Virus record (IMG/VR): IMGVR_UViG_2639762987_000002
Direction: 5' to 3' (one strand)
DNA from: a virus
Lineage: Duplodnaviria; Heunggongvirae; Uroviricota; Caudoviricetes
Length of the DNA: 64,000 nucleotides
Numbering within the stretch: position 1 is the stretch's first letter; each line of letters opens with the position of its first letter. Under the pieces are notes generated by a model, which did no database searches, was not told the DNA's origin, and saw only the letters and a list, made by a program, of their open reading frames with translations. Position numbers and translations under genes: made by a program. This document shows positions 13,752 to 54,215 of the stretch, piece by piece.

Positions 13752-13764
13752 AAACAAGTTGTTT
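13752..13764. promoter_or_regulatory. Palindrome AAACAAgTTGTTT upstream of parA (operator-like)
   Basis: 13-bp palindrome AAACAA-N-TTGTTT; similar sites at 16682, 28267, 40681, 54203. Confidence 0.45.
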
Positions 13765-13799
13765 CAGACGATAATTATATACGCAAAGGGAACTCTCCA

Positions 13800-14468
13800 A
13801 TGACCAAGATCTTTGTGGTTGGCGGCACAAAGGGCGGGCCTGGCAAATCCACCGTTGCCCAGCAAATTGCCGTTTGCCTGAAAGTCAAAAAGAAGAAGAA
13901 GGTTTATATCACTGATATAGATATTCAGCGCACGACAACAAGCTGGTGTGAAGACCGTCGACAGAACGAAGACCTTGAGCTGATTCCTTTTGCATACGTT
14001 CAGGATGACATCATTAAGCACCTAAAATCGCTTCAGGGTAGAGCTGAGTTTGTAGTGGTAGATGCTGGTGGCTTCGACTCCGAAATTCAGCGACAAGCGA
14101 TGCTGATGGCTGACGTTATCATTATCCCGCTGCGTCCTAAGCGTCGTGATTTGAAATCTTTACGTGACATCGATCCTATTATCGACAATGTTCGCAATGT
14201 AAACGATAAAGTGAAGGTCCGCGCGGTCATGAACCAGTGCCCGGCTTTGCCATCACAAGTGTCTCGCATTCTGGCGGCTAAAGAGATTGTTGAGACGTTT
14301 GGCATCGAGTCTGCGCCAGTCAATCTATATAACCGCAACGTCTATGATGATGCGGAAGAGTCTGGTCGTTCTATCTTTGAAATGACCGGTAGCGAGCGCG
14401 ACAAAAAGGCGGAAGCCGAGTTTGAAGAATTTGTAGATTATCTGTTGAGTCTGGAGGAAGAAGAATAA
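13800..14468 (+). CDS. parA: ParA-family partition ATPase
   Basis: Deviant Walker A GGTKGGPGKST at N-terminus; 222 aa; followed by a small RHH-like gene. Confidence 0.75.
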   Translation: MTKIFVVGGTKGGPGKSTVAQQIAVCLKVKKKKKVYITDIDIQRTTTSWCEDRRQNEDLELIPFAYVQDDIIKHLKSLQGRAEFVVVDAGGFDSEIQRQAMLMADVIIIPLRPKRRDLKSLRDIDPIIDNVRNVNDKVKVRAVMNQCPALPSQVSRILAAKEIVETFGIESAPVNLYNRNVYDDAEESGRSIFEMTGSERDKKAEAEFEEFVDYLLSLEEEE

Positions 14469-14827
14469 TGTCCATGAAAATGGGTGACCTAGCAAAGCGC
14501 AAAGAGCCTGATGCACCGGCTAAGAACACAACTCCTTTGCGCCAACCAGTCAGACCACAGGGACGCCCGACTCGTGGCAAAGAGAAAATTAAAAGCCGCA
14601 CAATGTCACTGGAGGACGAATACTTCGAACTGCTGGAGATGATGAAGTTCATCCCTCGCTTCGAGAAGTTCACTCGTTCTGACGTGATTCGAGCAGCCAT
14701 TTTCCATCTGGCAGAGAAGTCACCGCAGGAAATCGAGGACATCGTGAAATTGAATGAGGCGATCACCGCTGCCGATGTCACGATGCGTACCGATGAAATT
14801 AAACGAGAGTTGATGAAGAAAGGTTAA
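14468..14827 (+). CDS. Putative centromere-binding protein (ParG/RHH-like)
   Basis: 119 aa; basic disordered N-terminus, C-terminal strand-helix-helix-like region; start overlaps parA stop. Confidence 0.4.
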   Translation: MSMKMGDLAKRKEPDAPAKNTTPLRQPVRPQGRPTRGKEKIKSRTMSLEDEYFELLEMMKFIPRFEKFTRSDVIRAAIFHLAEKSPQEIEDIVKLNEAITAADVTMRTDEIKRELMKKG

Positions 14828-14828
14828 A

Positions 14829-14865
14829 AGTTATGCATTGGCGCAATGTACGCGCCAATGCATAA
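14829..14865. other. Perfect 15-bp inverted repeat between convergent genes
   Basis: GTTATGCATTGGCGC-aatgtac-GCGCCAATGCATAAC; no T-run; terminator or protein-binding site. Confidence 0.5.
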
Positions 14866-14879
14866 CTACAGTGTCAGCT

Positions 14880-15647
14880 TTATGCCGCGCTAACACTATG
14901 TTCAGTCCTAACCACCCCAACCTTCACAAAAGGGCTACCGTAGCTTGGTGGCTTCTTGATTAATTTGCCTACATACAGTTTTCTAATATGCTCATCGGCT
15001 ATTCTGCCAACAAATTCATAACGTTTTGTGTCGGGGCCAAGAGCTATATCCCTTGTAAAGTACTGCTGAGAACCGGCTTTGACCCAGCATTCAATCTGAT
15101 AAACTTCCATTATCAGCCCACCATATGTAGCGTAGGCATATTTGAGATTCTCGTCTCTTGGAACCTTTGCCCATACGCCACGCGTAGCTTCATATAATGC
15201 CAGAGCGGACATTCCTGACTTGTAGGTGCTGTTTAGCAGGAAGGCAAGACCGGCGTGCTCAGGAGCAATTTCAGTTTCCTCTTGCAGCACTAAGTGATGG
15301 TAGGCGTCCAGTGATATTCTGCCCATCATGGAACCACTTCCTCGTACCTTATTCGTAAGCTCTCCGACCCCCATAAGGTCGATGCATGTCGCCTCAACAA
15401 GTTTGGCTGTGGTTTCATCCATACCATGACGAAGTATATCTATGCCTAATTTTTTATTAGCCAAAAGTTCTTTGATCCGCATGGATTTGGGAGAGTCATC
15501 GGGATACTTGATGTGATCGAGACAACGAGTCGATTTGCCTTTTCCTATGTAAAACGGTCTTTTCATCTTGTCTTCTGTATCATAGAGACAGTAAACATAG
15601 TATTTAGCCTTATCCAATGATCTCGCGTATACCGATAAATCGTCCAT
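14880..15647 (-). CDS. GIY-YIG family nuclease
   Basis: 255 aa on minus strand; N-terminal YYVYCLYD...PFYIGKGKSTR matches the GIY-YIG motif; C-terminal domain unassigned. Confidence 0.6.
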   Translation of the reverse strand: MDDLSVYARSLDKAKYYVYCLYDTEDKMKRPFYIGKGKSTRCLDHIKYPDDSPKSMRIKELLANKKLGIDILRHGMDETTAKLVEATCIDLMGVGELTNKVRGSGSMMGRISLDAYHHLVLQEETEIAPEHAGLAFLLNSTYKSGMSALALYEATRGVWAKVPRDENLKYAYATYGGLIMEVYQIECWVKAGSQQYFTRDIALGPDTKRYEFVGRIADEHIRKLYVGKLIKKPPSYGSPFVKVGVVRTEHSVSAA

Positions 15648-15765
15648 TATTGCATCTCTTTGCTACTGACTAATGCGTTCTATTTTACACATAAGTTTTT
15701 AATCAATTTAACAGGCTCAAAGTGTAGAGCTTCTGGGCGTCTAAGACGACAAGTTATGCCTGTTT

Positions 15766-15822
15766 CTGTATATATAAATAATAAGTAACTTATTAAATAT
15801 ATACGGAAGCAGGTCTTTTAAA
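15766..15822. promoter_or_regulatory. AT-rich element with TATAAATA core flanked by imperfect inverted repeats (copy A)
   Basis: CTGTATATATAAATAA...TATACGGAAG(C)AGG; second copy at 61957-62015; lies in divergent intergenic region. Confidence 0.4.
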
Positions 15823-15929
15823 AGACACCACCAGAACAACTCCCTTCCGTTTCCACTTCCAAAAACTGCCACCAGTCGCTATCATCCGCTCATTGTGATA
15901 AGTAAGTAACTACCTACCAGGTGAGCCAC

Positions 15930-16670
15930 ATGAGCCAAATCTTTTTCGATACCATCGACAACGACCAGTACGACTTCATGACAGAGTGGAATACCGCTGT
16001 TATGGACAAGTGGGTCGCTGAAAACATTGGTTTGTCGCGCTGTAAAGACGAGGCTGAACTCTTCGAGACGAAGTGGTTTGATTACCGCGACATGCATCCT
16101 CTCATGGCCACCTGTCTTTTTACGGAGGCATACAAACGTCAGTACTCAAATATCATGCTGACGCACGGTCGCGAACACTTTGAAACAGCTCCGTTCACCA
16201 CCGGGTTAAAACGCCTGCCTTATCAGGAGTTGTCGACTGCCAATAAAACGTCGCTATGGAAAGCACGCCAGTTTGCGGATCGCTATTGCTGCTCATACGA
16301 CTACTTTATCTCCACCGTTCTTTCCGCAGCTGCACGACGGCTGTGGGACAAGCTGCCGCGCCCACAGCATTTGTGGCAGCCAGAACTGATTGAGATATTT
16401 GAAGAGAAATTAGCCAGACGCGCAACAACCCGTCTGGATGACTCTCTGGTTAGCTTTAAGCATATGGGAGACATGCAGTTCAACCCGATTCAGGAAAGCT
16501 ATTTTGAGTGGATTCTGGAGCGTTTGCGCACCATCCCTCGCAGCAAGCGCATACGCGCAATTTTCTCCGCTATCTGGCTAATGGAAATCGTTCCAGAGCG
16601 CCTTATTTCCGCCCACTTTCCAGAAGAACTGGAAGAAGCACGGCGGTTTATTGATCCCCTATCTAATTAA
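15930..16670 (+). CDS. Hypothetical protein
   Basis: RBS AGGTGAG before ATG 15930 (ORF track begins GTG 15921); no motif recognised. Confidence 0.5.
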   Translation: MSQIFFDTIDNDQYDFMTEWNTAVMDKWVAENIGLSRCKDEAELFETKWFDYRDMHPLMATCLFTEAYKRQYSNIMLTHGREHFETAPFTTGLKRLPYQELSTANKTSLWKARQFADRYCCSYDYFISTVLSAAARRLWDKLPRPQHLWQPELIEIFEEKLARRATTRLDDSLVSFKHMGDMQFNPIQESYFEWILERLRTIPRSKRIRAIFSAIWLMEIVPERLISAHFPEELEEARRFIDPLSN

Positions 16671-16681
16671 CTAATACTAGA

Positions 16682-16694
16682 AAACAATTTGTTT
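16682..16694. promoter_or_regulatory. Palindrome AAACAAtTTGTTT upstream of helicase gene
   Basis: Perfect half-sites AAACAA/TTGTTT 20 nt upstream of the ATG. Confidence 0.45.
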
Positions 16695-16713
16695 AAAAAA
16701 CAAAGGAAAGCAC

Positions 16714-18054
16714 ATGACCGAACTTTGCCATACAGGACGCGGGCTGTCCGAAGAGTTTGATGAAGATTTCCAGAACAGACTGACGGCATATTTTTGTCGT
16801 GATCACGAGTTTCTTACTCGTGCGGGAGATCTGGTTGTGCCTAGCCAGTTTGCCAATGCGGCCAATGCCATATTGGTTAATATGGTTTCGGGCTATTACC
16901 GTATGTACAAGAGCGCGCCCTCTTCATCTGCAATTCTGGATATGCTTAAGCGTGCGAAACGCGATAAGACTATCCGTGAGGAACTATTCGCCGATGTTGT
17001 TGCTGCGTTTAAGCGCATTCTTGCAGAAAAATTGTCCGATACCTCGTACATGGTTGACCAGGTATCAACCTTCGCAAAAAGTGTAGCGTTTGATGATGCT
17101 CTGATTAAGGCTGCTGAACTGAAAGAGAAAGGCGACTTTCAGGGGGCGATGGCAATCATGGCCAAGGTTCAGCAGATTGGATCGAACGAAGCGACCGGAA
17201 TCTATGACTACTACACCTCCGCAAGTGAGCGATTGAAAGCGCGTGAATATGAGGCTTCAGAGGAGTATGTACCAAACAGTATTACAACTGGACTCCCTCT
17301 TCTCGATAGGTTGCTGTACCAAAAAGGCTGGGCAAAGCGCGAAATGGTGCTCTTCATGGGGTTCGCTAAATCCGGTAAATCGACCGCAATGGGTGAGTTT
17401 TCCATAAACGCAACGCTTGCTGGCTACAATGTTCTGTATCTCTCGCTGGAGGTTCACACCACCATTTTATCCGACCGTTTTGATGCAAGATTGTCGGAGA
17501 CAGAAATGTCCAAGCTGGTGGAACGGCGCGATGAGGTTCATCGTAAGTTGGCAGAGTTGGGAGCCACGAAGGGGATTGGTAGTTTGTGGGTGGTTGAGCG
17601 TCCGTCAGGAAGTATGTCACCGGCAGATCTGGACCGTATGCTTAACAGCATGAAAGCCAACGGCATGGTACCTGACATGGTTGTTGTCGACTACGCAGAT
17701 TTGATGCGTGCCAGTTATGACCTTCGTGATGATCGCGCCAACATTCGTAGTATCTACACCGATTTACGTGCTCTTTATGACAAGCATAACGTTGCTGGGA
17801 TCACGGCATCGCAGACAAACCGTGAAGGTGGCGCGTCAGAAGTTGCCACAATGATGCACGCTGCCGACAACATCGAAAAAGTACGTATTGCTGACCTGGT
17901 AATAACGATCAACAAAACCGAAGAAGAAGAAGCGAAAGGAGAGGCTCGTCTCTACTTTGCCGGTTCACGTAACCAGCAGGGAGGGATCAGCATTCGCGTT
18001 AAACAAAACCTCGAACAAATGCGCTTCATTGAGCGAATCTTAGACGTTACCTAA
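16714..18054 (+). CDS. Replicative DNA helicase (DnaB-like, RecA-fold)
   Basis: 446 aa; Walker A GFAKSGKST, Walker B-like VVVDYADLM; adjacent to primase. Confidence 0.6.
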   Translation: MTELCHTGRGLSEEFDEDFQNRLTAYFCRDHEFLTRAGDLVVPSQFANAANAILVNMVSGYYRMYKSAPSSSAILDMLKRAKRDKTIREELFADVVAAFKRILAEKLSDTSYMVDQVSTFAKSVAFDDALIKAAELKEKGDFQGAMAIMAKVQQIGSNEATGIYDYYTSASERLKAREYEASEEYVPNSITTGLPLLDRLLYQKGWAKREMVLFMGFAKSGKSTAMGEFSINATLAGYNVLYLSLEVHTTILSDRFDARLSETEMSKLVERRDEVHRKLAELGATKGIGSLWVVERPSGSMSPADLDRMLNSMKANGMVPDMVVVDYADLMRASYDLRDDRANIRSIYTDLRALYDKHNVAGITASQTNREGGASEVATMMHAADNIEKVRIADLVITINKTEEEEAKGEARLYFAGSRNQQGGISIRVKQNLEQMRFIERILDVT

Positions 18055-18135
18055 AAAATAAGCGTGGAGAACACCTCCACGCTTGATTCATTGGTGAAAC
18101 AACTTTTCTTTTGCCAAACCACAAAAGAAAAACAC

Positions 18136-19317
18136 ATGAGCCTTTATGTTATATCAACATTTAGGTTGGTCACAATATTGCCTGTTAAAAGTGGAATTAT
18201 CGTGAGCGAGCTGAAAGAGCTAATTACCGAATTAGATTTTGAACAATGGTTGGATACTGAAGGTATCGTTTATCGACGTGGAGGCGTGAGTACTCGCGGT
18301 CGTGAAGTGAATATCAAGGAGTGTCCGGTATGCGGCAGCTCCAACTGGAAGGTATATTTCAATCTGACCAGTGGCGTCGGTAAATGCTTCGCTGGTGATC
18401 ATCCCGAAGAGATTCAGTTCAATAAGCTGGTCTTCCTCAAGCACTACAGCGGCAAATCACGACGACAGTTCGAGGAATATGTGCAGAACGCCCTTCTTTC
18501 CCAGGGGTGGGCACCAAAGAAAGAAGAGCTAGTGCTTGCAAGCACAGTCGAGTTAGAGGAGCCAGTTGCACTCCCTCGTCATTACGAGCTTCCTATAGAT
18601 GGCCGTCTTCCAGACTATCTGGTTGAACGAAACATATCGCCTGAAATGGCAAAGTATTTTGACCTACGATACTGCGTCGAAGGCAAGCACGCCTATGTAG
18701 ATCCGTATACAGATCAGGTTAAAGGACAGATATTCGATATGCGAATACTGATACCGGTTTACGATCTGGATGGGGTAATGAAGACATTTCAGGGACGAGA
18801 CATTACCGGTACAGCAGAACGCCGCTACCTCTTTCCTATGCAACTTCCAGCTTCAGGTAAGTTTCTCTACAACGGCCATAATGCAGTCGGCAAACAGACT
18901 GTAGTTGTCTGTGAGGGGGCGTTCGATGTTATGGGGGTTAAACGAGCTATTTTTGACGAAGAAACATTACGTGATTACGTGGAACCAATAGGAACGTTCG
19001 GGATGCATCTATCTGGTAACACCACTCAGGATGCAGAAGATCAGTTAGGCGCGTTCCTGACGCTCAAGGCGCGTGGATTACGTAATGTGATCATGATGTG
19101 GGATAGTGAAAAGCAAGCTATACGCAACACGATGGCCGCAGCCAGGCGACTGACCAGTATCGGTCTTAATGTCAAAGTTGCGTGTTTGGGTGAGGAAGGA
19201 CTCGACCCGGGCGGTGCAACGCCAGAACAAATTATCAAAGCCTATTATCGGGCAAAACCGTATACCAAACAGTTGGAGTTGCAAAGCAAGGTTTTGGGCA
19301 TTAAGGCTCTATCATAA
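18136..19317 (+). CDS. DNA primase (DnaG-like zinc finger + TOPRIM)
   Basis: ATG 18136 preceded by AAAAGAAAAACACATG; CPVCGSS...GKCFAGDH zinc motif; VVVCEGAFDVMG and MMWDSEKQ TOPRIM-like motifs. Confidence 0.7.
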   Translation: MSLYVISTFRLVTILPVKSGIIVSELKELITELDFEQWLDTEGIVYRRGGVSTRGREVNIKECPVCGSSNWKVYFNLTSGVGKCFAGDHPEEIQFNKLVFLKHYSGKSRRQFEEYVQNALLSQGWAPKKEELVLASTVELEEPVALPRHYELPIDGRLPDYLVERNISPEMAKYFDLRYCVEGKHAYVDPYTDQVKGQIFDMRILIPVYDLDGVMKTFQGRDITGTAERRYLFPMQLPASGKFLYNGHNAVGKQTVVVCEGAFDVMGVKRAIFDEETLRDYVEPIGTFGMHLSGNTTQDAEDQLGAFLTLKARGLRNVIMMWDSEKQAIRNTMAAARRLTSIGLNVKVACLGEEGLDPGGATPEQIIKAYYRAKPYTKQLELQSKVLGIKALS

Positions 19318-19392
19318 CAATCACCTTTAAAATAAGTAGATGATTACTTATCTTTCTGTGAGAATACTTTCATCTGTTAGCTAGGAGTTGGT

Positions 19393-20169
19393 ATGAAAGA
19401 CGAAATTCAGAAATTAGCCTGCGACATCATTGATAAAACTGGTTTAGAAATCAGCGAGAGCAATCGACTAGACATCATTGAAAAAGCGGTAAAAACAGCA
19501 ATGGATCATATCGCCACTCGTTTGGTCGAGATCCCGCTACCGGGGCTACCTTATCTGAAGGTTAAGTTACACGTATGGGGTGAACCTTCTTGTGCACGAC
19601 GTTCTGCATTAGTTGTTTTTATTAGCAAAGAAAACCCGCTCAGTCTTAAAGTGCAGGTTGGAGCATGGCTTGATGGCAGAGTGATCTACACAAATACCGT
19701 TTTTTGTCTTTCAAACGATGAAACTATTGAAGCGGCCATTCAAGAAGCAGTTCTAGCAATGCGCAGCAGCGGTTTGATGAAGAATAACTACGAAGAGTAC
19801 TTGCGTTCGATAAGTGGTGAAAAGACATTATCTCTGAAAGCAGATTTCGTTACCCCGAAAAATCTGTTGGAAGTCTTGCTTAATAAAGGGGCTAATGATG
19901 CCGTAAATGTAATCAGAGAGAGTGAGTATGCGTCTCTTTGCGACATGTGCAAAAGCCAGTTGGATCTGGTGCATATCGTTATTGATGCTGGGAAGGCATG
20001 TGATGGCGTAATGGCGGAATTTGCTTGGAAGGTGGTCAGGATTGCTAACGAATTACCGATGATAGAGCAAGAGGCTAAATCATACGCCACCAATCATGTC
20101 ACAGAGCTTCTTGCCCCCTATCGCTTAGAAAGCAATCAGCGCAAGATGATTAGCTGGGGAAGTTGGTAA
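19393..20169 (+). CDS. Hypothetical protein
   Basis: 258 aa; RBS AGGAG. Confidence 0.5.
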   Translation: MKDEIQKLACDIIDKTGLEISESNRLDIIEKAVKTAMDHIATRLVEIPLPGLPYLKVKLHVWGEPSCARRSALVVFISKENPLSLKVQVGAWLDGRVIYTNTVFCLSNDETIEAAIQEAVLAMRSSGLMKNNYEEYLRSISGEKTLSLKADFVTPKNLLEVLLNKGANDAVNVIRESEYASLCDMCKSQLDLVHIVIDAGKACDGVMAEFAWKVVRIANELPMIEQEAKSYATNHVTELLAPYRLESNQRKMISWGSW

Positions 20170-20224
20170 TCTCTCCGCGCGTCGTTTTTTACGCAAATAA
20201 CGATAGGTAAGTACAAGATTATTT

Positions 20225-20707: not shown

Positions 20708-22026
20708 AAAAGTTGATCGCACTTAAGCATAAGCTGGACGAAATGAAAGCTATGGGAACCAATGCAAAAAAAGAGGCATTGGCCAACATGGATGACTTCG
20801 AGCAAAGCATGGTTTCATTGATGCTCAACCCTTTCATCCGTTTTGGGGTAAAGAAATACAAAGTGGCAGAGCCGCTTAGTGAGTCCATCCCAAGTGACGA
20901 AAAAGCCATTGATGTACTGAATAAGCTGGCCTCTCGCGAGCTAACGGGGAACGCAGCAATAGCAGCTGTTGAGTCTATCGTGGCGTCAATGTGCGCCGAT
21001 GGGCAGGACGTGTTCCGTCGTTTCCTCTTAAAAGACCCGAAAGCAGGTGTTGGGATTAGCCTATGCAACAAGGTTTTTGAAAATCCCATTCCGAAATTCG
21101 AGGTGCAGCTGGCGTCACCGTATAAAGAAAAAGGCGACAAATACCCCTTCAAGCCAAATCCTAAAGCAAAATGGCCGATGATTGGCAGTCTTAAGCTCGA
21201 TGGTTTGCGAGTAATTTGCGAGGTTATTGTTGACGAGGAAGAGGTTAACTTCCTTTCTCGTACTGGTAATCCAATCACGTCTCTCGATCACCTAAAGCCA
21301 GCAATGCTCGAATTAGGCAAACTTTCAGGCCACAAACACATCTTCTTCGATGGTGAAGGAACTGCCGGTTCATTTAACCAGTCCGTATCTGCATTGCGCA
21401 AAAAGAACGTGCAGGCAATTGGCGCTATTTATCATGTTTTCGACTTCTTCCTACCGGAATGGCGAGCACAGGCTAAATCCAAAGAGTATGCAAAGACAGG
21501 TATGAAGCTGAAAGAGCGCCTGGCTATGCTGGTGGCGTTGTTCAAAAACGATCGCAGTGAAGGCTACACACAAGACATTCACCTGCATCCGTTCTATATC
21601 ATCCATAGCCACGAAGACTTCATCGAACGCTTCATGAAACGCCTGGACGATAACGAAGAAGGGGAGATGGGCAAAGATCCGAACTCTGTTTACGAGTTTA
21701 AACGTACCCGCAGCTGGTGGAAGTTAAAAGACGAAGATTCAGAAGATGGTGAAATTATCGACTTTGAGCCGGGCGACCCGGACTCTGGTTTTGCCAACAC
21801 ACTTGGAAAAATTGTTATTCGTCTTGAAAACGGCGTCATCGTTCGTGCGAGCGGCATTAAGCATAAATATCTGGATGAGTTCTGGAACAACAAAGAGAAG
21901 TACCGTGGTCGTATTGTCGAGGTTCATTGTCACGAGAAAACACCGGACGGCAGCTTACGCCACCCACGACTGAAATGGCCGCGTTGCTTACGCGATACAG
22001 AAGATCGAATCGGAGATAAAGAATGA
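20704..22026 (+). CDS. ATP-dependent DNA ligase
   Basis: 440 aa; adenylation motif I SLKLDGLR (KxDG). Confidence 0.7.
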   Translation: MKKLIALKHKLDEMKAMGTNAKKEALANMDDFEQSMVSLMLNPFIRFGVKKYKVAEPLSESIPSDEKAIDVLNKLASRELTGNAAIAAVESIVASMCADGQDVFRRFLLKDPKAGVGISLCNKVFENPIPKFEVQLASPYKEKGDKYPFKPNPKAKWPMIGSLKLDGLRVICEVIVDEEEVNFLSRTGNPITSLDHLKPAMLELGKLSGHKHIFFDGEGTAGSFNQSVSALRKKNVQAIGAIYHVFDFFLPEWRAQAKSKEYAKTGMKLKERLAMLVALFKNDRSEGYTQDIHLHPFYIIHSHEDFIERFMKRLDDNEEGEMGKDPNSVYEFKRTRSWWKLKDEDSEDGEIIDFEPGDPDSGFANTLGKIVIRLENGVIVRASGIKHKYLDEFWNNKEKYRGRIVEVHCHEKTPDGSLRHPRLKWPRCLRDTEDRIGDKE

Positions 22027-22202
22027 TGCTCGGCTGGATGATTGCATTTTTAGCAGTTGGTTTTTTCATAGGTATTGTGGTGATGTCCAGTTGCATCAAT
22101 GACTACATTAAAAGCGGTGTTATAGAAAGACGCGGTCGTATTTATCGCATTGTAGAAATAACCAACACCCTGAAGGAGATTAAGGATGATCGTATTAAGT
22201 AA
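22023..22202 (+). CDS. Small membrane protein, paralog family member A
   Basis: 59 aa, below ORF-track cutoff; ATGA overlap with ligase stop; TM helix then RGRIYRIVEIT motif. Confidence 0.4.
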   Translation: MMLGWMIAFLAVGFFIGIVVMSSCINDYIKSGVIERRGRIYRIVEITNTLKEIKDDRIK

Positions 22203-22401
22203 ACGGGAGAAGGAAACGCTTCATGAAATCAGTAAGTGGCCGGAGTTCCCTGAGTACTGGAAGCCTAAAACGCGAGCTAAGTTAGAGCGTTTAGGGTTGG
22301 TTGCAAACGTTTCTGAAACGTGGTGTTCGGCCAACTACCAGTTAACTGATAAAGGGAAAGTATTGCTACAGCAATTAGTAGAATCAGGAGTGTTAAAATG
22401 A
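22186..22401 (+). CDS. Hypothetical small protein
   Basis: 71 aa; RBS AAGGAG. Confidence 0.45.
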   Translation: MIVLSKREKETLHEISKWPEFPEYWKPKTRAKLERLGLVANVSETWCSANYQLTDKGKVLLQQLVESGVLK

Positions 22402-26251: not shown

Positions 26252-27355
26252 ATGAAAAATAGCTTTGACAGAGCACGCGCTGCGGAGAACACCTCAAAAG
26301 AGGCGATAGAGTATCTCGAAAGAGCATCTCAAATGCAGGCCGTTATGATCTCGCAGGTTAGCAATGACATGAGATTCTCGGACGCATTCATGTTATTCAC
26401 TCGCTTATCTCTGCTGATAACCAGACGTCGGCCAGAGATCGCTGTTCATTGTATTTTGATACATGTTTTGCCGCACATTGCCGATGTAAAAGTAAGTGAC
26501 ATTAATAGGTTCATGGTGAACCAACTGGTCAACCCACTAATACTGGATGGCAAAATTGTTATGGGCCGCCGCGTTTTCTCTCTGATGAAGCAGTTCCTTA
26601 GCTGGTGCGCCTTCCAGGGGATGATAGACGTGTCACCGTTAAACGATATGTCACTAAACAAAGTTGCCGGTGGCGCAAAGCCCACACCTCGCGAGCGGAA
26701 GCTGACCGACGCAGAGGTATGGGTGTTCTGGAATATATGGGACTACTTCAATGTGTGCGCTGGTACAAAATGGGCGGCCAGGCTGTGTCTTGTATCCGCA
26801 AGACGACCTGACGAAGTACTGCGGGCTAAAAAAAGTGAGTTCAATCTTAAGCGTGGGGTTTGGAATCAAGGCAAGAGGAACAAATCTGCCCGTGAGCATT
26901 CGCTGCCTTTAAGCACATTAATGCGCACATGTATTGAAGAGTTGTTCGAATACGGTAAAGGCAGCCAGTGGCTCGTGCCTTCGAATAAAAAAATCGGGAA
27001 AGACCTTCCTATGTCTAAAGTGGCAATAGCCCAGGCATTACGTCGTATCCTGGAACGACCAGAACTGATGGAGCTTGAGCCATTTACACCCCGAGACTTG
27101 CGCCGTACTGCGCGTAGTTACTTCCCAGCATTAGGCATAAGCCAGGAGGTATCACGTAAAATCATGAACCACAGTCTTGAGGGGATAGATCGAGTCTACG
27201 ACCGGCACGATTATATGGACGAGATGCGAGACGCCTTAGAAAGTTTCTCGACGTACATCGCATCAATCGTAGAGCAACCGGATTTAGACGAAATTGACCA
27301 CAAATTTAAGGGAGATCGTCTATCAACAGAGCTTATTCGTGTAAATTTTTCATAG
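26252..27355 (+). CDS. Tyrosine site-specific recombinase (integrase or resolution recombinase)
   Basis: 367 aa; C-terminal region with ARRPDEVLR, LRRTARSY, NHSLEG...YDRHDY resembling tyrosine recombinase boxes. Confidence 0.6.
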   Translation: MKNSFDRARAAENTSKEAIEYLERASQMQAVMISQVSNDMRFSDAFMLFTRLSLLITRRRPEIAVHCILIHVLPHIADVKVSDINRFMVNQLVNPLILDGKIVMGRRVFSLMKQFLSWCAFQGMIDVSPLNDMSLNKVAGGAKPTPRERKLTDAEVWVFWNIWDYFNVCAGTKWAARLCLVSARRPDEVLRAKKSEFNLKRGVWNQGKRNKSAREHSLPLSTLMRTCIEELFEYGKGSQWLVPSNKKIGKDLPMSKVAIAQALRRILERPELMELEPFTPRDLRRTARSYFPALGISQEVSRKIMNHSLEGIDRVYDRHDYMDEMRDALESFSTYIASIVEQPDLDEIDHKFKGDRLSTELIRVNFS

Positions 27356-27736
27356 AGACTTTATGGCCTCAACAACCTTTTGTGATGCGCCTTTCTCTTT
27401 ACCGAATCGCTCGTTATATGCAGCAAGAACCTGTTTTTCGTCCTCGTTAAGAGGAGCAGTGCCTTCTTTGTATAAAAATGCTGCGAGTTCGGGTTGGCGT
27501 TCTTCCAGCACCATCATCATAAGACGACTTGGCTCAATACCCAGTGCCAGCGCCAGCGGACGAACCTTATCGATAGGCAAAGGAATTTTGCCGCTTTTAA
27601 TTAAAGAAAGGTTGTTGGCGTTTTTATACCCAATTGTTTTGGCTATCTGGGCCTGGCTCATAGGTGAGGATTCAATCAACCCTGCGATAAAAGCAGCGTA
27701 GCGACTTTCTATAAATTCAATCTTGTTATCAGACAT
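27350..27736 (-). CDS. XRE-family helix-turn-helix transcriptional regulator
   Basis: 128 aa on minus strand; HTH segment SQAQIAKTIGYKNANNLSLIKSG; divergent from downstream operon. Confidence 0.6.
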   Translation of the reverse strand: MSDNKIEFIESRYAAFIAGLIESSPMSQAQIAKTIGYKNANNLSLIKSGKIPLPIDKVRPLALALGIEPSRLMMMVLEERQPELAAFLYKEGTAPLNEDEKQVLAAYNERFGKEKGASQKVVEAIKSL

Positions 27737-27767
27737 GGTTACAACCTTTGCGCGTTCAATTCTCTCT

Positions 27768-27781
27768 GGTAAGTGCTTACC
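27768..27781. promoter_or_regulatory. Operator-like palindrome GGTAAGTGCTTACC in divergent promoter region of the XRE regulator
   Basis: Perfect palindrome; same core as the site at 51759-51779. Confidence 0.45.
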
Positions 27782-27987
27782 GATATTACATCAAAGGTTA
27801 GGGTTGTAAAGCTATTATCATTTTTTTCGATAGGCACTTAAAAGACCGGTTAAAGGCCATTGCACGGAGAAAAATTAGCCCAAAATAGGTAAGAAAATTA
27901 ACTTGCATATGATATGAATGTATTCAGTATTGATACAAATTTTAGTAGTATTCCTTACCATAGTATAAGTTAGAATGGATTGATTGA

Positions 27988-28200
27988 ATGAACACCACTA
28001 TTTCCAGCCTAATCGCTCTTGAGATCGGACACGTACAGAAATTAGCTGATGAGTGTGTAGCTGACATCCTCACCGATCTACCGAATGAGCAGATTCAGGT
28101 TGGTGTGAATGACACAACTGGCTTTATATTCGAACTTAACAACAAACGCTTCACGCTTCTCAATACCGGCTCCGAGTCTTTAGCCGTCAGAATCTGTTAA
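27988..28200 (+). CDS. Hypothetical small protein
   Basis: 70 aa; first plus-strand ORF after divergent region; followed by hairpin 28214-28248. Confidence 0.4.
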   Translation: MNTTISSLIALEIGHVQKLADECVADILTDLPNEQIQVGVNDTTGFIFELNNKRFTLLNTGSESLAVRIC

Positions 28201-28298
28201 CCCCTCTTCTCCCTGCGCGAATGGCTTAGTTCCCTGTTCGCGCAGTGCTACATTAAACACACTAGTAAATAATTTGTTTTCATAACAAAGGATTAGCC

Positions 28299-40632: not shown

Positions 40633-40656
40633 GGCGTCCAGTTGGACGCCGTTTTA
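40633..40656 (+). terminator. Rho-independent terminator
   Basis: GGCGTCC-agtt-GGACGCC followed by GTTTTATT. Confidence 0.7.
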
Positions 40657-40680
40657 TTCTCGTTATTATCACACACAAGA

Positions 40681-40693
40681 AAACAATTTGTTA
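40681..40693. promoter_or_regulatory. Palindrome AAACAAtTTGTTa upstream of gene 40710
   Basis: Member of the AAACAA-N-TTGTTT family. Confidence 0.4.
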
Positions 40694-40709: not shown

Positions 40710-41534
40710 ATGCCCAACCACATTACAAACGAAATCCGAGTCATAGGTGGTACAAATAAACAACGCTTAGATTTCATACGTGCCATAACTAACAAAAAAG
40801 GTCTAATTGACTTTAATACCATTTGCAGACGTCCGAAAAGTATAGAAATGGAAGAAAACAATCATATCAGGCGCATGGCCTCTGCAATGGCGGGCGAAAC
40901 AGTTTACGACCACATGTTCGGTGAATTAAAGACTCCAGAACAGGTCGAATTAGCTATGCGTGAATCAGGAATGACACGCAAGGAAATTCGCAAAATCAAA
41001 GAGCAGGCTCTTATGCGGCTTGAGAATTATCGTCGCTATGGCTATTACTCATGGTTTGACTGGTCGCGAGCTAATTGGGGAACAAAATGGAATGCCTACA
41101 ACATCGAAATGCCCGTAAAACGTATCCCTACACGTATTAAGTACGGCCATAATTTCCGCCATACACACGTTCGAGCATATGCAAAAAGAATCTATAAAAA
41201 ACGTCTTGCAAGACATGCCGCAACTGGTGGTGAGTTGGTGATTCGCTTTGAAACAGCCTGGTCTATGCCAAAACCAATTTATCAAGCGATGGCTAGAAAG
41301 TTCCCGCACCTTGAGTTTGTAATACGTTATGCAGACGAAGACTTCGGCAATAACTGCGGATTCATTTTACTTCGCAACGGCAAATGGGAATATGACTACA
41401 TTGCACCGGCGAATAACAAACAATCGTCAGAAGAAAAAATCAAATGGCGCAAGTTCGCCTTTGAGTTATGTTGTCCTGGTATCACTCCACAAGAATACGG
41501 TCTAAATGAAGAATACGAATACGCCGGATATTAA
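40710..41534 (+). CDS. Hypothetical protein
   Basis: 274 aa; Trp-rich motif YSWFDWSRANWGTKWNAYNIE; basic. Confidence 0.5.
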   Translation: MPNHITNEIRVIGGTNKQRLDFIRAITNKKGLIDFNTICRRPKSIEMEENNHIRRMASAMAGETVYDHMFGELKTPEQVELAMRESGMTRKEIRKIKEQALMRLENYRRYGYYSWFDWSRANWGTKWNAYNIEMPVKRIPTRIKYGHNFRHTHVRAYAKRIYKKRLARHAATGGELVIRFETAWSMPKPIYQAMARKFPHLEFVIRYADEDFGNNCGFILLRNGKWEYDYIAPANNKQSSEEKIKWRKFAFELCCPGITPQEYGLNEEYEYAGY

Positions 41535-43765: not shown

Positions 43766-44101
43766 ATGAAGACCATCCCATTCGCGCTGTTGTTTCTTTC
43801 TTCGATCGTTGTGGCTGACACCACTGTTTATCAGTGTGAAATGTCTGTAGCCGACGTTAAGAATGGCGCTCTTACCGACGTCATAAAAGCACCATATGGA
43901 GCGATGGTCGTAGACAGCGGCGACCAGTTCTATGTTGTGCGTGACGATCGAGTGTTGTCATCCCCATATCTCACAAATCGTAATGGCAAATTAACCGGCG
44001 TCGGAGAAGACCACTTCGTATACAACAAATACAAGGGCTTCTATGGCGTTCACGCTTCTCAGCAAAGCTACCTTTTCGATGACTGCAAGGAGGTTGGGTA
44101 A
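43766..44101 (+). CDS. Secreted small protein (signal peptide)
   Basis: 111 aa; N-terminal MKTIPFALLFLSSIVVA signal; RBS AGAGGTGG. Confidence 0.5.
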   Translation: MKTIPFALLFLSSIVVADTTVYQCEMSVADVKNGALTDVIKAPYGAMVVDSGDQFYVVRDDRVLSSPYLTNRNGKLTGVGEDHFVYNKYKGFYGVHASQQSYLFDDCKEVG

Positions 44102-44313
44102 TGGCATTAACACTGGCAGGTCTGGAAATCGAGAAAACAAGCGGCTACTGGCGTGCTAAGGGTTTCAAGCAGCCTGGCATTCTTGAGCGTCTGGAACGTG
44201 AAGATGGGTATATCGTCCACCAGCGGCGTGAATGGCGTATGTACGATCCAGAAACAGGAAAACTGACTACAAAAGCCGGAACACTTTGGGGTCTGTTGAA
44301 GAAAATACACTAA
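44101..44313 (+). CDS. Hypothetical small protein
   Basis: 70 aa; start overlaps upstream stop (TAATG). Confidence 0.45.
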   Translation: MALTLAGLEIEKTSGYWRAKGFKQPGILERLEREDGYIVHQRREWRMYDPETGKLTTKAGTLWGLLKKIH

Positions 44314-48293: not shown

Positions 48294-48526
48294 GGCAAAG
48301 TCGTTATGGGAGCTTTCGAGACTTTGCCATCACGATGAAAAGACTTGAACGAGGCCAGACGGTGATGTTTCACAAGCCCTACCCGCCACAAGGAAATCCC
48401 GTAGCGTTTTATCTTGGAAGGTTAACCAGAAAAGGCGTATTGAGGCGCAGATCCTTCCCGGCGCATACGGAGTTCAGATTGAAAGAAGGTCAAAAGCTAA
48501 CACACGGTATCAAAGGTGTTATATGA
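48290..48526 (+). CDS. Hypothetical small basic protein between sbcD and sbcC
   Basis: GTG 48290 after RBS GGAGG, GTGA overlap with sbcD stop; ORF track begins GTG 48248. Confidence 0.3.
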   Translation: MRQSRYGSFRDFAITMKRLERGQTVMFHKPYPPQGNPVAFYLGRLTRKGVLRRRSFPAHTEFRLKEGQKLTHGIKGVI

Positions 48527-51172: not shown

Positions 51173-51181
51173 GGAGACTAT

Positions 51182-51751
51182 ATGAGTAAAAAAATCAGCG
51201 TAGTTGGTGTTGATCCCTCAATGAGCAACTTTGGGCTTGCTGTGGGCACTTTAGACCTTGAGACGGACGAACTTGAGATTCACGGCCTTACTCTTATTGA
51301 GACTAAAGCGGGGAGTAACAAAAAGACCGTTCGTGTGAACAGTGACGATCTGCGCCGAGCCAGTGAAATATGGCGTGTTGCGAAGCCAATCATTGATAAG
51401 GCAAATATGGTTTTTTGTGAGCTACCGGTTGGGAGCCAAAACTCTCGTTCGCAGACGTCTTACGGTATTTGTATCGGTGTACTTGCGTGTGTGGATAAGC
51501 CATTGATCCAGGTTACTCCAAACGAAATCAAGCATTTTGTCGGCAATAAACTTACTACATCGAAAGAAGAGATTATCCAGTGGGCTACGAAAAAACACCC
51601 TAAAGCACCGTGGCTGCGTCGTAAGCAATCTGGACAGGATGTTCTCGTGAACAAAAACGAACATTTGGCTGATGCGGTGGCTGCCATCCATACCGGTATG
51701 CAAACAGATCAGTTCCGCCAGGTGCGCGATGTTCTTAAGTCTCTCATTTGA
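51182..51751 (+). CDS. RuvC-like Holliday junction resolvase
   Basis: 189 aa; N-terminal VVGVDPSMSNFGLAVG, internal FCELPVG, C-terminal DAVAAIHTG resembling RuvC catalytic segments. Confidence 0.6.
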   Translation: MSKKISVVGVDPSMSNFGLAVGTLDLETDELEIHGLTLIETKAGSNKKTVRVNSDDLRRASEIWRVAKPIIDKANMVFCELPVGSQNSRSQTSYGICIGVLACVDKPLIQVTPNEIKHFVGNKLTTSKEEIIQWATKKHPKAPWLRRKQSGQDVLVNKNEHLADAVAAIHTGMQTDQFRQVRDVLKSLI

Positions 51752-51785
51752 TTTCATTGATAGGTAAGTGCTTATCTATTAACAT

Positions 51786-51815
51786 GGGCCACTATATTTA
51801 GTGGCCCTCTTTATT
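51786..51815 (+). terminator. Hairpin terminator
   Basis: GGGCCACT-atattt-AGTGGCCC followed by TCTTTATTT. Confidence 0.6.
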
Positions 51816-51824
51816 TGGTGATAC

Positions 51825-54140
51825 ATGATAAGCATCGTAAAACGTAACGGCCAAACAGAGCCGTTATCCGAAGAAAAATACAACCGCGTCGTAATGTATG
51901 GCGTAGAAGGCATTCGTGGTGTAAGCGCATCCGCTGTAGCAATGGGAGCTGCGGCCAGCATTTTTGATGGGATGACCACCAGCCAGTTGCATGAGGCTTT
52001 GGTTAAATCTGCCGCTGATTTGATCTCACCAGAAGCACCAAATTACTCACAGGTGGCTGCCCGCCTGAACATTTTTAAAATCCGCAAAGATGCCTTCGGT
52101 CGTTACGACTATCCGAACTTCTACCAACACATTGTCAAGAACGTTAACAAGGGCGTTTATGACAAGGATTTGCTGACACATTATTCGTTTGAAGAGATCG
52201 AAGAACTCGGCAATTACATTAAGCCGAAACGTGACGATCTTTTTGGCTATGCAGCTACGGTGCAGTTGCAAAGCAAATACCTCGTTCAAAACCGTGTTAC
52301 TGGTGAGATTCATGAGGGGCCGCAACATATCTATATGCTGGTAGGCATGTGTCTGTTCCAGAATTGGGAAGACGACTGCGCTGGCAAAACACGTATGGAG
52401 ATGGTCAAAGGTTTCTATGACGTTACAAGTACGTTCAAACTGTCTCTGCCCACACCTATCATGGCCGGCGTCCGTACTCCAACCCGTCAGTTCTCCAGTT
52501 GTGTGCTGATTGAGTCTGGCGATAGTCTGAAAGGGATTAGTGCAGCTTCAGCCGCAATTATCGACTACGTTTCACGTCGTGCTGGAATTGGTATTGGTAT
52601 TGGCCGTATCCGTGCGCTGGGCAGCGAGATCCGCAATGGTGAAGCCACCCATACCGGAGTTATTCCATTCCTGAAGCATTTCCAGACGGCTGTTAAATCT
52701 TGTTCGCAAGGTGGTGTTCGTGGTGGCGCAGCAACAGCGTTTTACCCGATCTGGCATCTTGAAGTTGAAAGTCTGCTGGTGGTGAAAAATAACCGTGGTA
52801 TTGATGAAAACCGCGTTCGCCATCTTGATTACGGCGTCATGAGTAACCGTCTAATGTACCGTCGACTCGTCAGAAGCGAGAACATCACTCTGTTCAGCCC
52901 GCATGATGTGCCTGATATGTACGAAGCCTTCTTCACAGACCAGGAGCTGTTTGAAAAGCTGTACCATAAATACGAAGCCGATGATTCAATTCGCAAGAAG
53001 TCAGTACCTGCCATTGAGCTGTTCTCATCTCTGATGCAGGAACGAGCGTCCACGGGCCGAATTTATATTGCGAACGTCGATCATATTAATGAGCATGGCG
53101 CTTTCATTCCTGCTCTTGCACCTGTCCGCCAGTCAAACCTGTGTATGGAGATCACCCTACCCACCCGTCCACTGGCATTTACCGACGACCCGAACGGTGA
53201 GATCGCGCTATGCACTTTATCCGCTTTTAACCTCGGAGCCATCCGTTCACTGGAGTCTCTTAAAGAGGTGGCGTTCTATGCCGTTGCTGCACTGGATTCG
53301 TTACTGGATTATCAAGACTATCCGATGGAGGCAGCCGAAGTGCCTGCCAAAGCTCGTCGTAGCTTGGGAATTGGTGTAACCAACTTTGCTTATTACCTGG
53401 CAAAGAATGGCGTTCGTTATTCTGATACCGCTGGCAATAAACTGGTGCATGAAACGTTCGAAGCTATCCAGTATTACCTTCTTGATGCCAGCTGCCGACT
53501 TGCTGAAGCAAAAGGTGAGTGTGACTGGTTTGAGCAGACCAAATACGCAATTGGTCAGTTGCCGATCGACCATTACCGTTCTTCATTAGACGAAAGTGGC
53601 GAAACCAACTTTGAGTTAAAGATGCCGTGGGAAGAACTGCGTGAACGTATTGCAAAATACGGCCTTCGCAACTCCACACTGACGGCACAAATGCCATGCG
53701 AGACTTCCAGCCAGATCACTAATTCCACCAACGGCATCGAACCGCCTCGTGGCCCGGTGTCGGTGAAATCTTCTAAGGACGGCATCGTTAAGATGGTCGT
53801 GCCTGAGTTTGAAAAACTGAAGGAACAGTATGAATACCTGTGGGATATGCCGGACAACCGCGGCTATCTGACAAAGGTGGCGATCATCCAGAAGTTCTTT
53901 GACCAGGCTATTTCAGCCAATACCAACTATGACCCTTCTCGCTTTGAAGGCGATAAAGTCCCAATGATGACGCTACTGTCAGATTTGCTTCTCGCCTACA
54001 AGATGGGAGTTAAAACGCTTTACTACCACAACACCAGAGATGGTGCAGGAAAGCGTGATGACGACGAACCGCAGAATCCACTGGCGCAAGCTGTAGCCGT
54101 CGAGCCAGAAGATGAGTGCGACGGAGCCTGCAAAATCTGA
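51825..54140 (+). CDS. nrdA: Ribonucleotide reductase class Ia large subunit
   Basis: 771 aa; N-terminal ATP-cone-like VKRNGQTEPL; active-site SNLCMEITLPT and PCETSSQI. Confidence 0.9.
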   Translation: MISIVKRNGQTEPLSEEKYNRVVMYGVEGIRGVSASAVAMGAAASIFDGMTTSQLHEALVKSAADLISPEAPNYSQVAARLNIFKIRKDAFGRYDYPNFYQHIVKNVNKGVYDKDLLTHYSFEEIEELGNYIKPKRDDLFGYAATVQLQSKYLVQNRVTGEIHEGPQHIYMLVGMCLFQNWEDDCAGKTRMEMVKGFYDVTSTFKLSLPTPIMAGVRTPTRQFSSCVLIESGDSLKGISAASAAIIDYVSRRAGIGIGIGRIRALGSEIRNGEATHTGVIPFLKHFQTAVKSCSQGGVRGGAATAFYPIWHLEVESLLVVKNNRGIDENRVRHLDYGVMSNRLMYRRLVRSENITLFSPHDVPDMYEAFFTDQELFEKLYHKYEADDSIRKKSVPAIELFSSLMQERASTGRIYIANVDHINEHGAFIPALAPVRQSNLCMEITLPTRPLAFTDDPNGEIALCTLSAFNLGAIRSLESLKEVAFYAVAALDSLLDYQDYPMEAAEVPAKARRSLGIGVTNFAYYLAKNGVRYSDTAGNKLVHETFEAIQYYLLDASCRLAEAKGECDWFEQTKYAIGQLPIDHYRSSLDESGETNFELKMPWEELRERIAKYGLRNSTLTAQMPCETSSQITNSTNGIEPPRGPVSVKSSKDGIVKMVVPEFEKLKEQYEYLWDMPDNRGYLTKVAIIQKFFDQAISANTNYDPSRFEGDKVPMMTLLSDLLLAYKMGVKTLYYHNTRDGAGKRDDDEPQNPLAQAVAVEPEDECDGACKI

Positions 54141-54202
54141 CATATGGTGGGGGATATCCCCACCTTCTCTTTGATTTGTAAGCCTTGTTTAAACACATAA
54201 GA

Positions 54203-54215
54203 TAACAACTTGTTT
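54203..54215. promoter_or_regulatory. Palindrome tAACAAcTTGTTT upstream of nrdB
   Basis: Member of the AAACAA-N-TTGTTT family. Confidence 0.4.

Follow-up and report, generated by a model that had tools for sequence, protein, structure and literature searches.

We describe a family of short palindromic sites, AAACAA-N-TTGTTT, in a 64,000-nucleotide (nt) stretch of Caudoviricetes DNA (IMG/VR record IMGVR_UViG_2639762987_000002; this whole stretch is referred to as the window) and in the phage-plasmids related to it. The sites form a discrete family with a common core and perfect dyad symmetry, are conserved in position and sequence across divergent lineages, and precede genes that, with one exception, are silent in a lysogen. 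The family is almost certainly the shared control site of one regulator of early, replication and packaging genes, and we give about an even chance to the palindrome being the operator at which one dimeric repressor, encoded by the phage and sequence-specific for DNA, controls a genome-wide regulon.

Sequence comparison places the window in an E. coli phage-plasmid of the SSU5/pHCM2 type, a group that includes pHCM2 of Salmonella Typhi. Over window positions 13000-20000, identity is 100% with plasmid pAVS0968-B (NZ_CP124394.1), 97-98% with Escherichia phages Cyrano, PhiR41_1 and CMS-2020a, and 82% with Salmonella phage SSU5.

Five sites in the window

The palindromes start at 13752 (site sequence AAACAAGTTGTTT), 16682 (AAACAATTTGTTT), 28267 (AAATAATTTGTTT), 40681 (AAACAATTTGTTA) and 54203 (TAACAACTTGTTT), all on the + strand and all where an initial annotation of this DNA had placed them, upstream of parA, helicase, vWA, gene 40710 and nrdB. 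The distance of 20-50 nt from a start codon given there agrees if measured from the palindrome start, and the family is, as had been claimed, distinct from the GATAAGTA family; the 13-bp palindrome AAACAANTTGTTT that all five were said to share is exact at 13752 and 16682, and carries one mismatch at each of 28267, 40681 and 54203. The gene products 3' of the sites are a small Walker-type ParA, a DnaB-like helicase, a vWA/CobT-like protein, a 274-amino acid (aa) hypothetical protein and NrdB. The sites and the genes discussed with them are as follows, with distances counted from the palindrome end.

13749..13764, + strand: site 1, core AGAAAACAAGTTGTTT; exact palindrome, 35 nt before the parA ATG (13800)
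13800-14468, + strand: parA; ParA/CbiA/MipZ matches on homologues
14468-14827, + strand: 119-aa ParA partner, directly 3' of parA; the 'ParG-like' candidate of the initial annotation
16679..16694, + strand: site 2, core AGAAAACAATTTGTTT; exact palindrome, 19 nt before the DnaB-like helicase ATG (16714)
28264..28279, + strand: site 3, core AGTAAATAATTTGTTT; one mismatch, 19 nt before the vWA/CobT-like ATG (28299)
40678..40693, + strand: site 4, core AGAAAACAATTTGTTA; one mismatch, 16 nt before the ATG of gene 40710-41534
40710-41534, + strand: gene behind site 4; 274-aa hypothetical product
54200..54215, + strand: site 5, core AGATAACAACTTGTTT; one mismatch, 31 nt before the nrdB ATG (54247)

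Exact AAACAANTTGTTT was found twice in the window vs 0.03 expected (0/100 shuffles), and the bare palindrome at up to two mismatches was not significant in the window (10 found vs 6.3 expected). An asymmetric extension upstream of the palindrome is common to all five sites (T at -14, A at -8 and -6, AG at -3/-2), and on account of this common context they are taken as a real family. In a leave-one-out analysis with a 34-nt weight matrix, each held-out site came directly behind the four training ones when ~128,000 positions, taken from the two strands, were ranked, with held-out sites scoring 19-34.5 vs 9.6-14 for the best non-site.

Copy number, core and symmetry across genomes

Whole genomes were scanned for sites with at most one mismatch. 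There are 18 in pAVS0968-B, 19 in SSU5, 17 each in Cyrano and Klebsiella phage pJN2-26, and 14 in Klebsiella phage vB_KpnS_p4727 (p4727), where 0.7 ± 0.8 are expected in Markov-1 random sequence of Cyrano composition; the 17-19 sites of the first four genomes place the family far above background. The range of 14-19 copies per ~105-kb genome covers lineages from Escherichia, Salmonella, Klebsiella, Enterobacter and Nissabacter, and in pAVS0968-B at least eight further copies lie beyond the window, each closely 5' of a co-oriented gene. In an unbiased census of palindromes in Cyrano (6-nt arms, gap 0-6), AAACAA-N1-TTGTTT was the top family, with 9 exact copies. Chance occurrence is ruled out by the exact-match count, the leave-one-out test, the genome counts and this census. 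Scanning IMG/VR with the 16-mer returned mostly single chance matches, plus SSU5-like contigs.

A logo of 32 non-identical same-orientation sites defined a 16-nt asymmetric core, AGAAAACAAnTTGTTT. Palindrome positions 1-6 and 8-13 complement each other perfectly and hardly vary (1.2-2.0 bits each) around a free centre (0.1 bit). Upstream, T at -14, A at -12, C at -9, A at -6 and AGA at -3..-1 are each present in 25-32 of the 32 sites, with G at -2 and T at -14 invariant (32/32). The right flank is AAg (AAGG) instead of the symmetric TCT, and the element is therefore a perfect dyad plus a one-sided extension. Deviations from the palindrome in Cyrano, SSU5 and related sites are not compensated across the dyad.

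Conservation and absence in related lineages

In SSU5, pJN2-26 and p4727, the sites in front of parA, helicase, vWA, nrdB, terS and the gene that follows the SPFH gene all have orthologues; sites are kept as well in Nissabacter, Enterobacter wuhouensis and another Klebsiella lineage, where identity between marker proteins is only 48-57%. An alignment of the parA upstream region from five lineages has the core as its only contiguous invariant block, and the flanks do not align. Orthologues of site 2 were found in SSU5, pJN2-26, p4727, L145 and L149; those of site 3 in SSU5, pJN2-26, p4727 and the Yersinia pestis plasmid pMT1 are exact palindromes; and the site 4 position, after the SPFH gene terminator, is kept (Cyrano 58595, SSU5 56848, p4727 89663, pMT1 63809) in front of a gene that differs. 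The A-to-T deviation of site 5 is the same in Cyrano, SSU5, pJN2-26 and the window (four genomes). Plasmid pMT1 has lost parA, helicase and the small-gene array, yet four intact sites are left in it, two of them ahead of terS and one each ahead of a DUF2591 gene and of vWA.

No family member was found in the 21-kb syntenic loci, parA upstream included, of the Morganellaceae relatives Moellerella, Xenorhabdus and Morganella, nor was any replacement palindrome found in its place. The complete 108-kb Moellerella plasmid gave three one-mismatch matches, which is about chance level, none with the AGA flank; genome-wide absence is confirmed for this plasmid only. Since the motif is invariant wherever it is present in divergent lineages, covariation between motif and regulator is uninformative.

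Such invariance across phage lineages whose own proteins are at ~50% identity, together with the absence from relatives in Morganellaceae, is what would be seen if a conserved Enterobacteriaceae host factor bound the site for sensing host state. The motif extends to hosts from the Yersiniaceae (Nissabacter, Y. pestis), and we know of no E. coli regulator with this consensus, CusR, KdgR, PurR and IHF being among those considered and none fitting, so that we give a host factor only a very slim chance.

Expression of motif-bearing units in a lysogen

Published RNA-seq normalised read counts for the Cyrano lysogen of E. coli LF82 grown in LB have a background median of 9.8 (PMC9928086 supplementary table). 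The counts for motif-bearing genes from this source (PMC9928086) are terS 7.1, helicase 21, vWA 7.8, CYRAN_58 5.7, nrdB 12.9, CYRAN_85 7.0, CYRAN_87 7.1, CYRAN_93 6.3, CYRAN_101 7.5, CYRAN_105 12.8, CYRAN_106 12.2, CYRAN_108 5.7, CYRAN_110 6.7 and CYRAN_111 25.5. Motif-bearing units are thus at or near background, the sole exception being the parA operon, with 50, 89 and 55 for its three genes (PMC9928086). Near-consensus extended -10 promoters are predicted for several of these silent genes, so that something would have to hold them off.

Predicted promoter architecture

About three quarters of the sites follow a common plan. The terminator-like hairpin of the preceding unit comes first, then a -10-like hexamer that ends 13 nt short of the palindrome; behind the hexamer come a CA-rich stretch and AAGA, then the palindrome itself, a Shine-Dalgarno sequence and ATG. 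Most copies lie 16-35 nt before the start codon and are co-oriented with the gene. The hexamer is often part of an extended -10, for example TGCGATAAT or TGAGATAAT in the small-gene array outside the window. If the -10 assignment is right, the palindrome would lie at about +7 to +19 of the transcript. Elements of this plan around the sites in the window are the following.

13629..13646, + strand: terminator-like hairpin ending the unit before site 1 (pattern scan)
28213..28245, + strand: hairpin (CTGCGCGAA...TTCGCGCAG; inverted repeat I8), abutting the 5' side of the site 3 promoter region
28246..28254, + strand: predicted extended -10 TGcTACATT of site 3, assigned by eye; SSU5 has TGaTAAATT in the same register
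40633..40650, + strand: terminator-like hairpin, 28 nt 5' of site 4 (pattern scan)
40664..40669, + strand: predicted -10 TATTAT of site 4, assigned by eye
54146..54164, + strand: terminator-like hairpin between nrdA and site 5 (pattern scan)

At helicase and nrdB, the promoters assigned by eye (TTGATC-16-AATACT and TTGTAA-16-TAAGAT, respectively) differ in register from the common plan, with the -10 overlapping or abutting the core, and this variable register is operator-like rather than that of a promoter element. The predicted -10 of nrdB, TAAGAT at 54198-54203, has as its last T the first base of TAACAA; if this -10 is right, the conserved deviation would be explained by the base completing the -10 hexamer.

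A minority of copies is inverted and lies directly after the hairpin, reading AAACAAnTTGTTTTCT on the coding strand, 18-19 nt 5' of a predicted extended -10 (TGTGAAAAT or TGAGATAAT) and so over the -35 region. The flank of this class is on the other side, TTGTTTTCT, which is the reverse complement of AGAAAACAA, and the two orientations are therefore equivalent by reverse complementation, as predicted for duplex-DNA recognition. Pairs of an inverted distal and a proximal copy exactly 51 bp apart were found at five or more promoters in three genomes (Cyrano 93114/93165; SSU5 88319/88370 and 93662/93713; pJN2-26 24759/24810 and 28539/28590).

Three other roles for the element were rejected. A sigma-70 -10 formed from TAnAAG next to the palindrome is ruled out by the invariant G at its last position (32/32), the -10-like element being further 5'. 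An activator site at -41.5 is ruled out by the dyad centre lying only 23-42 nt from the start codon. An RNA hairpin or intrinsic terminator is ruled out as well, since the core folds at -0.7 kcal/mol, the five leaders have z scores of -0.7 to +1.3 vs shuffles, and there is no compensatory variation.

The length and asymmetry of the conserved promoter-like block (-14 to -1 positions, 25-32/32 sites), its place directly after terminators and the silence of the genes in the lysogen would also suit a phage-specific promoter or initiation region, spanning ~-15 to +16 and read by host RNA polymerase with a phage factor or by a phage polymerase; at site 3 there is what we take to be a loose in-register likeness to T7/T3/SP6-type promoters (CACTA-GT). 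Against this, no RNA polymerase or sigma-like gene was found in four annotated genomes, the upstream block is adequately explained by an ordinary extended -10 and start region, the palindrome is found in inverted form at -35 as well and in a different register at helicase and nrdB, and polymerase promoters are not characterised by perfect dyad symmetry. We regard such a promoter as highly improbable.

Two observations on the leaders are recorded here. In the helicase (16688-16705) and vWA (28273-28291) leaders, the right half of the palindrome, UUUGUUU, could base-pair with AACAAAGG further 3', which takes in the Shine-Dalgarno sequence, at a predicted -2.3 kcal/mol (helicase) and -5.2 kcal/mol (vWA), which is not better than shuffles; the other three sites are without this pairing. 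The late operon (terS onward) has one or two motif copies in front (Cyrano 57-135, SSU5 56-134, pJN2-26 38628-38683), separated from the terS start codon by a GC-rich hairpin and T-run (gagcgcatggacgcgctc tgtgtgtttt), which by analogy looks like a promoter-proximal terminator as in Q-type antitermination control.

A proposed dispersed repressor regulon

Dyad symmetry, orientations that are equivalent by reverse complementation, pairing at 51 bp, a register that varies and silence in the lysogen jointly fit an operator on duplex DNA, and this is the preferred reading. Each unit would consist of a preceding terminator, a sigma-70 promoter that is mostly -35-independent (often with an extended -10, TGnGATAAT), the core AGAAAACAAnTTGTTT, a Shine-Dalgarno sequence and the first gene. 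The core would begin ~13 nt after the -10, at roughly +5 to +20 of the transcript, and a bound repressor would block open-complex formation or promoter escape. At a minority of promoters, a second, inverted copy would lie over the -35 region, 51 bp (five helical turns) upstream, and with this spacing cooperative binding or a small loop around the -10 would be possible. In the plasmid-prophage state, replication, nucleotide-metabolism, packaging and small early genes would be kept silent in this way. The transcription starts, the binding at the level of DNA and the repression in this scheme are what we infer from the arrangement of the sites.

Three points weigh against an operator of this kind. 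Every DNA-binding candidate tested failed comparative tests; about three quarters of the sites are co-oriented inside a predicted 5' leader and have an asymmetric flank, which would suit an RNA element as well; and a simple sigma-70 scan does not call the site promoters, whose -10 and -35 elements were assigned by eye. The second dimeric DNA-binding regulator proposed in the initial annotation is supported in so far as the dyad symmetry is that expected of a dimer's target, whereas no DNA-binding candidate for it survived and its action at the DNA level is not secure.

Candidate DNA-binding proteins

The initial annotation had named the ParG-like ParA partner (14468-14827) as a possible binder, in which case the site would be the operator and centromere of a ParG/omega-like protein that doubles as a global repressor, like omega of pSM19035 or KorB of RK2. 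Its gene directly follows a small Walker-type parA, the product reads by eye as a ribbon-helix-helix (RHH) protein with a basic disordered N-terminal tail (...GKEKIKSRTMSLEDEYFELLEMM...FTRSDVIRAAIFHLAEKS...), the site is in the parA promoter of every motif-bearing lineage, and no other repeat array adjoins the par operon. Expression of the parA operon alone among motif-bearing units (50/89/55 vs 9.8) is as expected of negative autoregulation, and half-sites 7 bp apart would suit two RHH dimers, omega being known to bind heptads.

These points are set against the distribution of the partner, which is disfavoured because it is kept without the motif in Morganellaceae and absent from the site-bearing pMT1. 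Moellerella, Xenorhabdus and Morganella keep ParA and the partner with the same strand, IKSRTVSMEDEY, and have no site with at most one mismatch in the 21-kb loci, and the putative DNA-reading strand is nearly unchanged in the Morganellaceae comparison (VIKSRTVSMEDEY vs KIKSRTMSLEDEY); pMT1 lacks both ParA and the partner and retains four intact sites. The RHH fold gave no Pfam match, no PDB sequence match and no significant hhalign alignment to ParG/CopG, and a low-confidence monomer model (predicted local distance difference test, pLDDT, 64) had no fold match. The site is also a single dyad, with no direct-repeat family in 13560-13810 and only repeats unrelated to the motif in 14800-15930. 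On balance the ParA partner is an improbable binder; an unassigned small protein, which had been offered as the alternative, is possible.

The gene after parA is annotated 'RelE/ParE putative toxin' in Cyrano and reads instead as a partition adaptor with an invariant N-terminal MGDLAKR. Upstream of parA in the Morganellaceae relatives (L152 6843-6942, L153 5998-6097, L154 6657-6756), the palindrome is replaced by two direct repeats, ATAA(C/T)AAGGC, ~21 bp apart, and the E. coli lineage has TAAGGCA, GTAGGCA and TTAGGCT 5' of the parA palindrome; repeats of the ATAA(C/T)AAGGC type may be the true sites of the ParA partner.

Further candidates were drawn from a list of genes common to Cyrano, SSU5 and pJN2-26 and absent from Moellerella, and from regulators noted in the window and its relatives. 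The integrase-adjacent helix-turn-helix (HTH) protein (27350-27736, - strand) was rejected, being absent from SSU5, present in the motif-less Moellerella and provided with GGTAAG..CTTACC repeats of its own (27765-27960). The 71-aa winged-helix-like protein (22186-22398) is ruled out, as 5 of 12 SSU5-like phages do without it, p4727 with its 14 sites among them, and the Cra-like protein (44101-44310) is unlikely, as the first 50 kb of P1 carries cra and no site. The RHH-like CYRAN_117 has predicted DNA-facing residues that vary between lineages sharing the motif; the two ParB-like proteins are at 5 and 9.5 in the lysogen vs the background of 9.8 and are present in Moellerella, as is CYRAN_123, which is silent in the lysogen; and the S24-only CYRAN_98 is an accessory gene.

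The divergent region 27737-27988, between the HTH gene and a 70-aa gene (27988-28200), contains GGTAAGTGCTTACC at 27767-27780 and further GGTAAG/CTTACC copies at 27888 and 27954. To judge from their placement, these copies are likely operators of the integrase-adjacent HTH repressor, in a classic immunity region.

An FljA-family protein and possible recognition at the RNA level

The only nucleic-acid-binding gene found to co-occur with the motif lies outside the window and encodes a protein of the 'repressor of phase-1 flagellin' family, FljA.

Cyrano 100780-101301 (- strand); SSU5_121; pJN226_0046; pAVS0968-B 83124-83648 (- strand): FljA-family gene (Pfam PF03614, E = 1e-80)

It is present in every motif-bearing genome examined (Cyrano, SSU5, pJN2-26, p4727, pAVS0968-B, L141, L143 and pMT1) and absent from the syntenic, motif-less Moellerella plasmid, and its counts in PLSDB follow those of the helicase genus by genus (FljA-family vs helicase: Klebsiella 345 vs 344, Escherichia 229 vs 222, Enterobacter 92 vs 91). 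The AlphaFold model (pLDDT 83) has two tandem helix-plus-five-strand Sm domains, and the top PDB matches of this predicted structure in Foldseek are all Hfq (probability 1.0, target-normalised TM-score 0.7-0.8). Because the sole co-occurring nucleic-acid-binding gene thus has a predicted RNA-binding, Hfq-like fold, the assumption of recognition at the DNA level is not secure.

Under the corresponding reading, the core would be recognised in the mRNA leader (5'-...AGAAAACAAnUUGUUUAAGG...) by the FljA-family protein (CYRAN_114/SSU5_121), which would repress translation and destabilise the mRNAs, in the manner of Salmonella FljA at the fliC 5' untranslated region, and the inverted copies would be leaders of short minus-strand RNAs or 3'-end elements. 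FljA-type regulators block translation of fliC mRNA (PMC2652032). In the Salmonella/Citrobacter fliC leader, CAAGUUGU is centred 24 nt before its AUG; for three of the five sites in the window the corresponding distance is 23-26 nt. Most sites, moreover, are co-oriented with the gene, lie between a -10-like element and the Shine-Dalgarno sequence, and have a one-sided AGA flank and an AAGG right flank. As Klebsiella is non-motile, flagellin is not the target of the FljA-family protein there.

Several features speak against recognition in the leader. Exact dyad symmetry has no obvious use on single-stranded RNA, the hairpin of the element is unstable and the leaders fold no better than shuffles (the values given above), and palindrome deviations are uncompensated. 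The inverted copies lie 5' of the downstream gene's -10 and after the upstream gene's hairpin, and a reverse complement on the coding strand is not equivalent for an RNA-binding protein; at helicase and nrdB, transcription from the promoters assigned by eye would begin within the element or beyond it. The likeness to fliC takes in just 8 of the 12 specified positions and was a post hoc observation, and the FljA-like mRNA is low in the LB lysogen (18 vs background 9.8). Recognition of the leader by this protein is accordingly held as a tentative, rather doubtful alternative. Its fuller form, in which the motif is the RNA operator of a tandem-Sm FljA-family repressor that silences ~15-20 lytic and maintenance units post-transcriptionally, possibly with short RNAs, and Salmonella FljA-fliC is a domesticated offshoot, we consider unlikely. 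A phage-plasmid origin of Salmonella fljA is suggested by the FljA family being a core gene of SSU5-like plasmids in Klebsiella and of pMT1.

Other features of the window

The GATAAGTA family was found 10 times in the window vs 1.4 expected, in a fuller form GATAAGTA-N4-6-TACTTATC.

10764, 13568(-), 15897, 19345(-), 22847/22861, 30424, 35542, 56486(-), 62355: copies of the GATAAGTA family

TAAGTA..TACTTA is the second most frequent palindrome in Cyrano and is common to Moellerella, with the variant AGGTATTnAAATACCT at an orthologous promoter. Since the annotated P1 late promoter LPs contains GATAAGTAACTT and its '-22 box' is AAGTnACTT, the family may, by analogy, represent P1-type (Lpa-dependent) late promoters rather than repressor sites.

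The stretch at window ~62380-62830, which includes the 'CYRAN_81' open reading frame (62532-62660), is 91-98% conserved as translated and strongly expressed in the Cyrano lysogen (117 vs background 9.8); its sole open reading frame is an implausible 44 codons with a GTG start, and the stretch was not found in the Moellerella plasmid or pMT1. It is probably a non-coding RNA; an Rfam search of window 61900-62900 gave spurious miRNA matches only and no credible family. A large imperfect inverted repeat (CCTGTTTCTGTATATAT ... ATATATACGGAAGCAGG, centre ATAAGTAACTTAT) at 15759-15813 sits in the 270 bp of intergenic DNA that separate the minus-strand gene 14880-15647 from the gene at 15921. Compared with the window at 1223-5953 and ~59200-64000, plasmid pAVS0968-B (NZ_CP124394.1), identical in other respects, has an IS66-family insertion in the tail gene, and the segment after the AAA-ATPase gene is in inverted arrangement there; the window therefore does not come from precisely that record.

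Significance and comparison with known systems

The motif defines a regulon of partition, helicase-primase, vWA/MoxR, nrdB, the late operon and a small early-gene array. SSU5/pHCM2-type phage-plasmids are very common in clinical Enterobacteriaceae, with 738-926 PLSDB records matching the SSU5-type helicase region or helicase protein, and include Y. pestis pMT1 with its four kept sites; they bear resistance genes (PMC9600943, PMC12217456). The 16-bp element offers a handle for finding the master regulator, and for de-repressing or locking such phage-plasmids. If the FljA/Hfq-like protein were its reader, this would be an unusual, regulon-wide control of lysogeny at the RNA level and would explain the source of the Salmonella flagellar phase repressor. 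In the literature, no account was found of the motif or of SSU5-type regulation, a full-text search for motif sequences gave no paper, and nothing was found on the control of plasmid maintenance vs lytic growth in SSU5/pHCM2-type phage-plasmids.

With FljA and the fliC 5' untranslated region of Salmonella, the present system has in common an FljA-family core gene, an element mostly ~20-40 nt before the AUG in a predicted leader, and CAAGUUGU at an equal distance from the AUG; it differs in that the element is a perfect DNA dyad, occurs also inverted 5' of promoters and forms no stable RNA structure, and in that the similarity to fliC is partial. The omega (pSM19035) and ParG (TP228) systems likewise have a small ParA, an RHH-looking small partner, a site in the parA promoter and half-sites 7 bp apart, whereas here partner and motif do not co-occur, the site is a single dyad without an array, and the RHH fold is putative.

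Dispersed operators of a bound repressor are found in phage P1, also a phage-plasmid, in which scattered lytic operons, replication genes among them, are each shut off by a short operator on or just after the promoter. The P1 annotation places Ossb (21015-21031) directly after the -10 (21009-21014), and Oref between -35 and -10. P1 C1 operators are asymmetric 17-mers, annotated as 'monovalent', in contrast to the 13-bp dyad described here, and the sequences are dissimilar. No AAACAAnTTGTTT was found in the first 50 kb of P1, and no C1 homologue is annotated in SSU5-like genomes; for want of a sequence match, of the motif in that part of P1 and of an annotated C1-like gene, the P1 C1 operator was rejected as the identity of the motif.

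In the IncP plasmids RK2/RP4, short symmetric operators at many replication, partition and transfer promoters are bound by the cooperative dimeric repressors KorA and KorB (PMC2665229). The likeness to the present family lies in a short, perfectly symmetric operator repeated at replication and partition promoters. The KorB operator is itself a 13-bp 6-1-6 palindrome, present in 12 copies. KorB belongs to the ParB family and its operator sequence is unrelated to the motif; the ParB-like genes here are off in the lysogen and present in the motif-less Moellerella. A dispersed operator regulon on a plasmid or phage-plasmid is thus a well-known kind of system.

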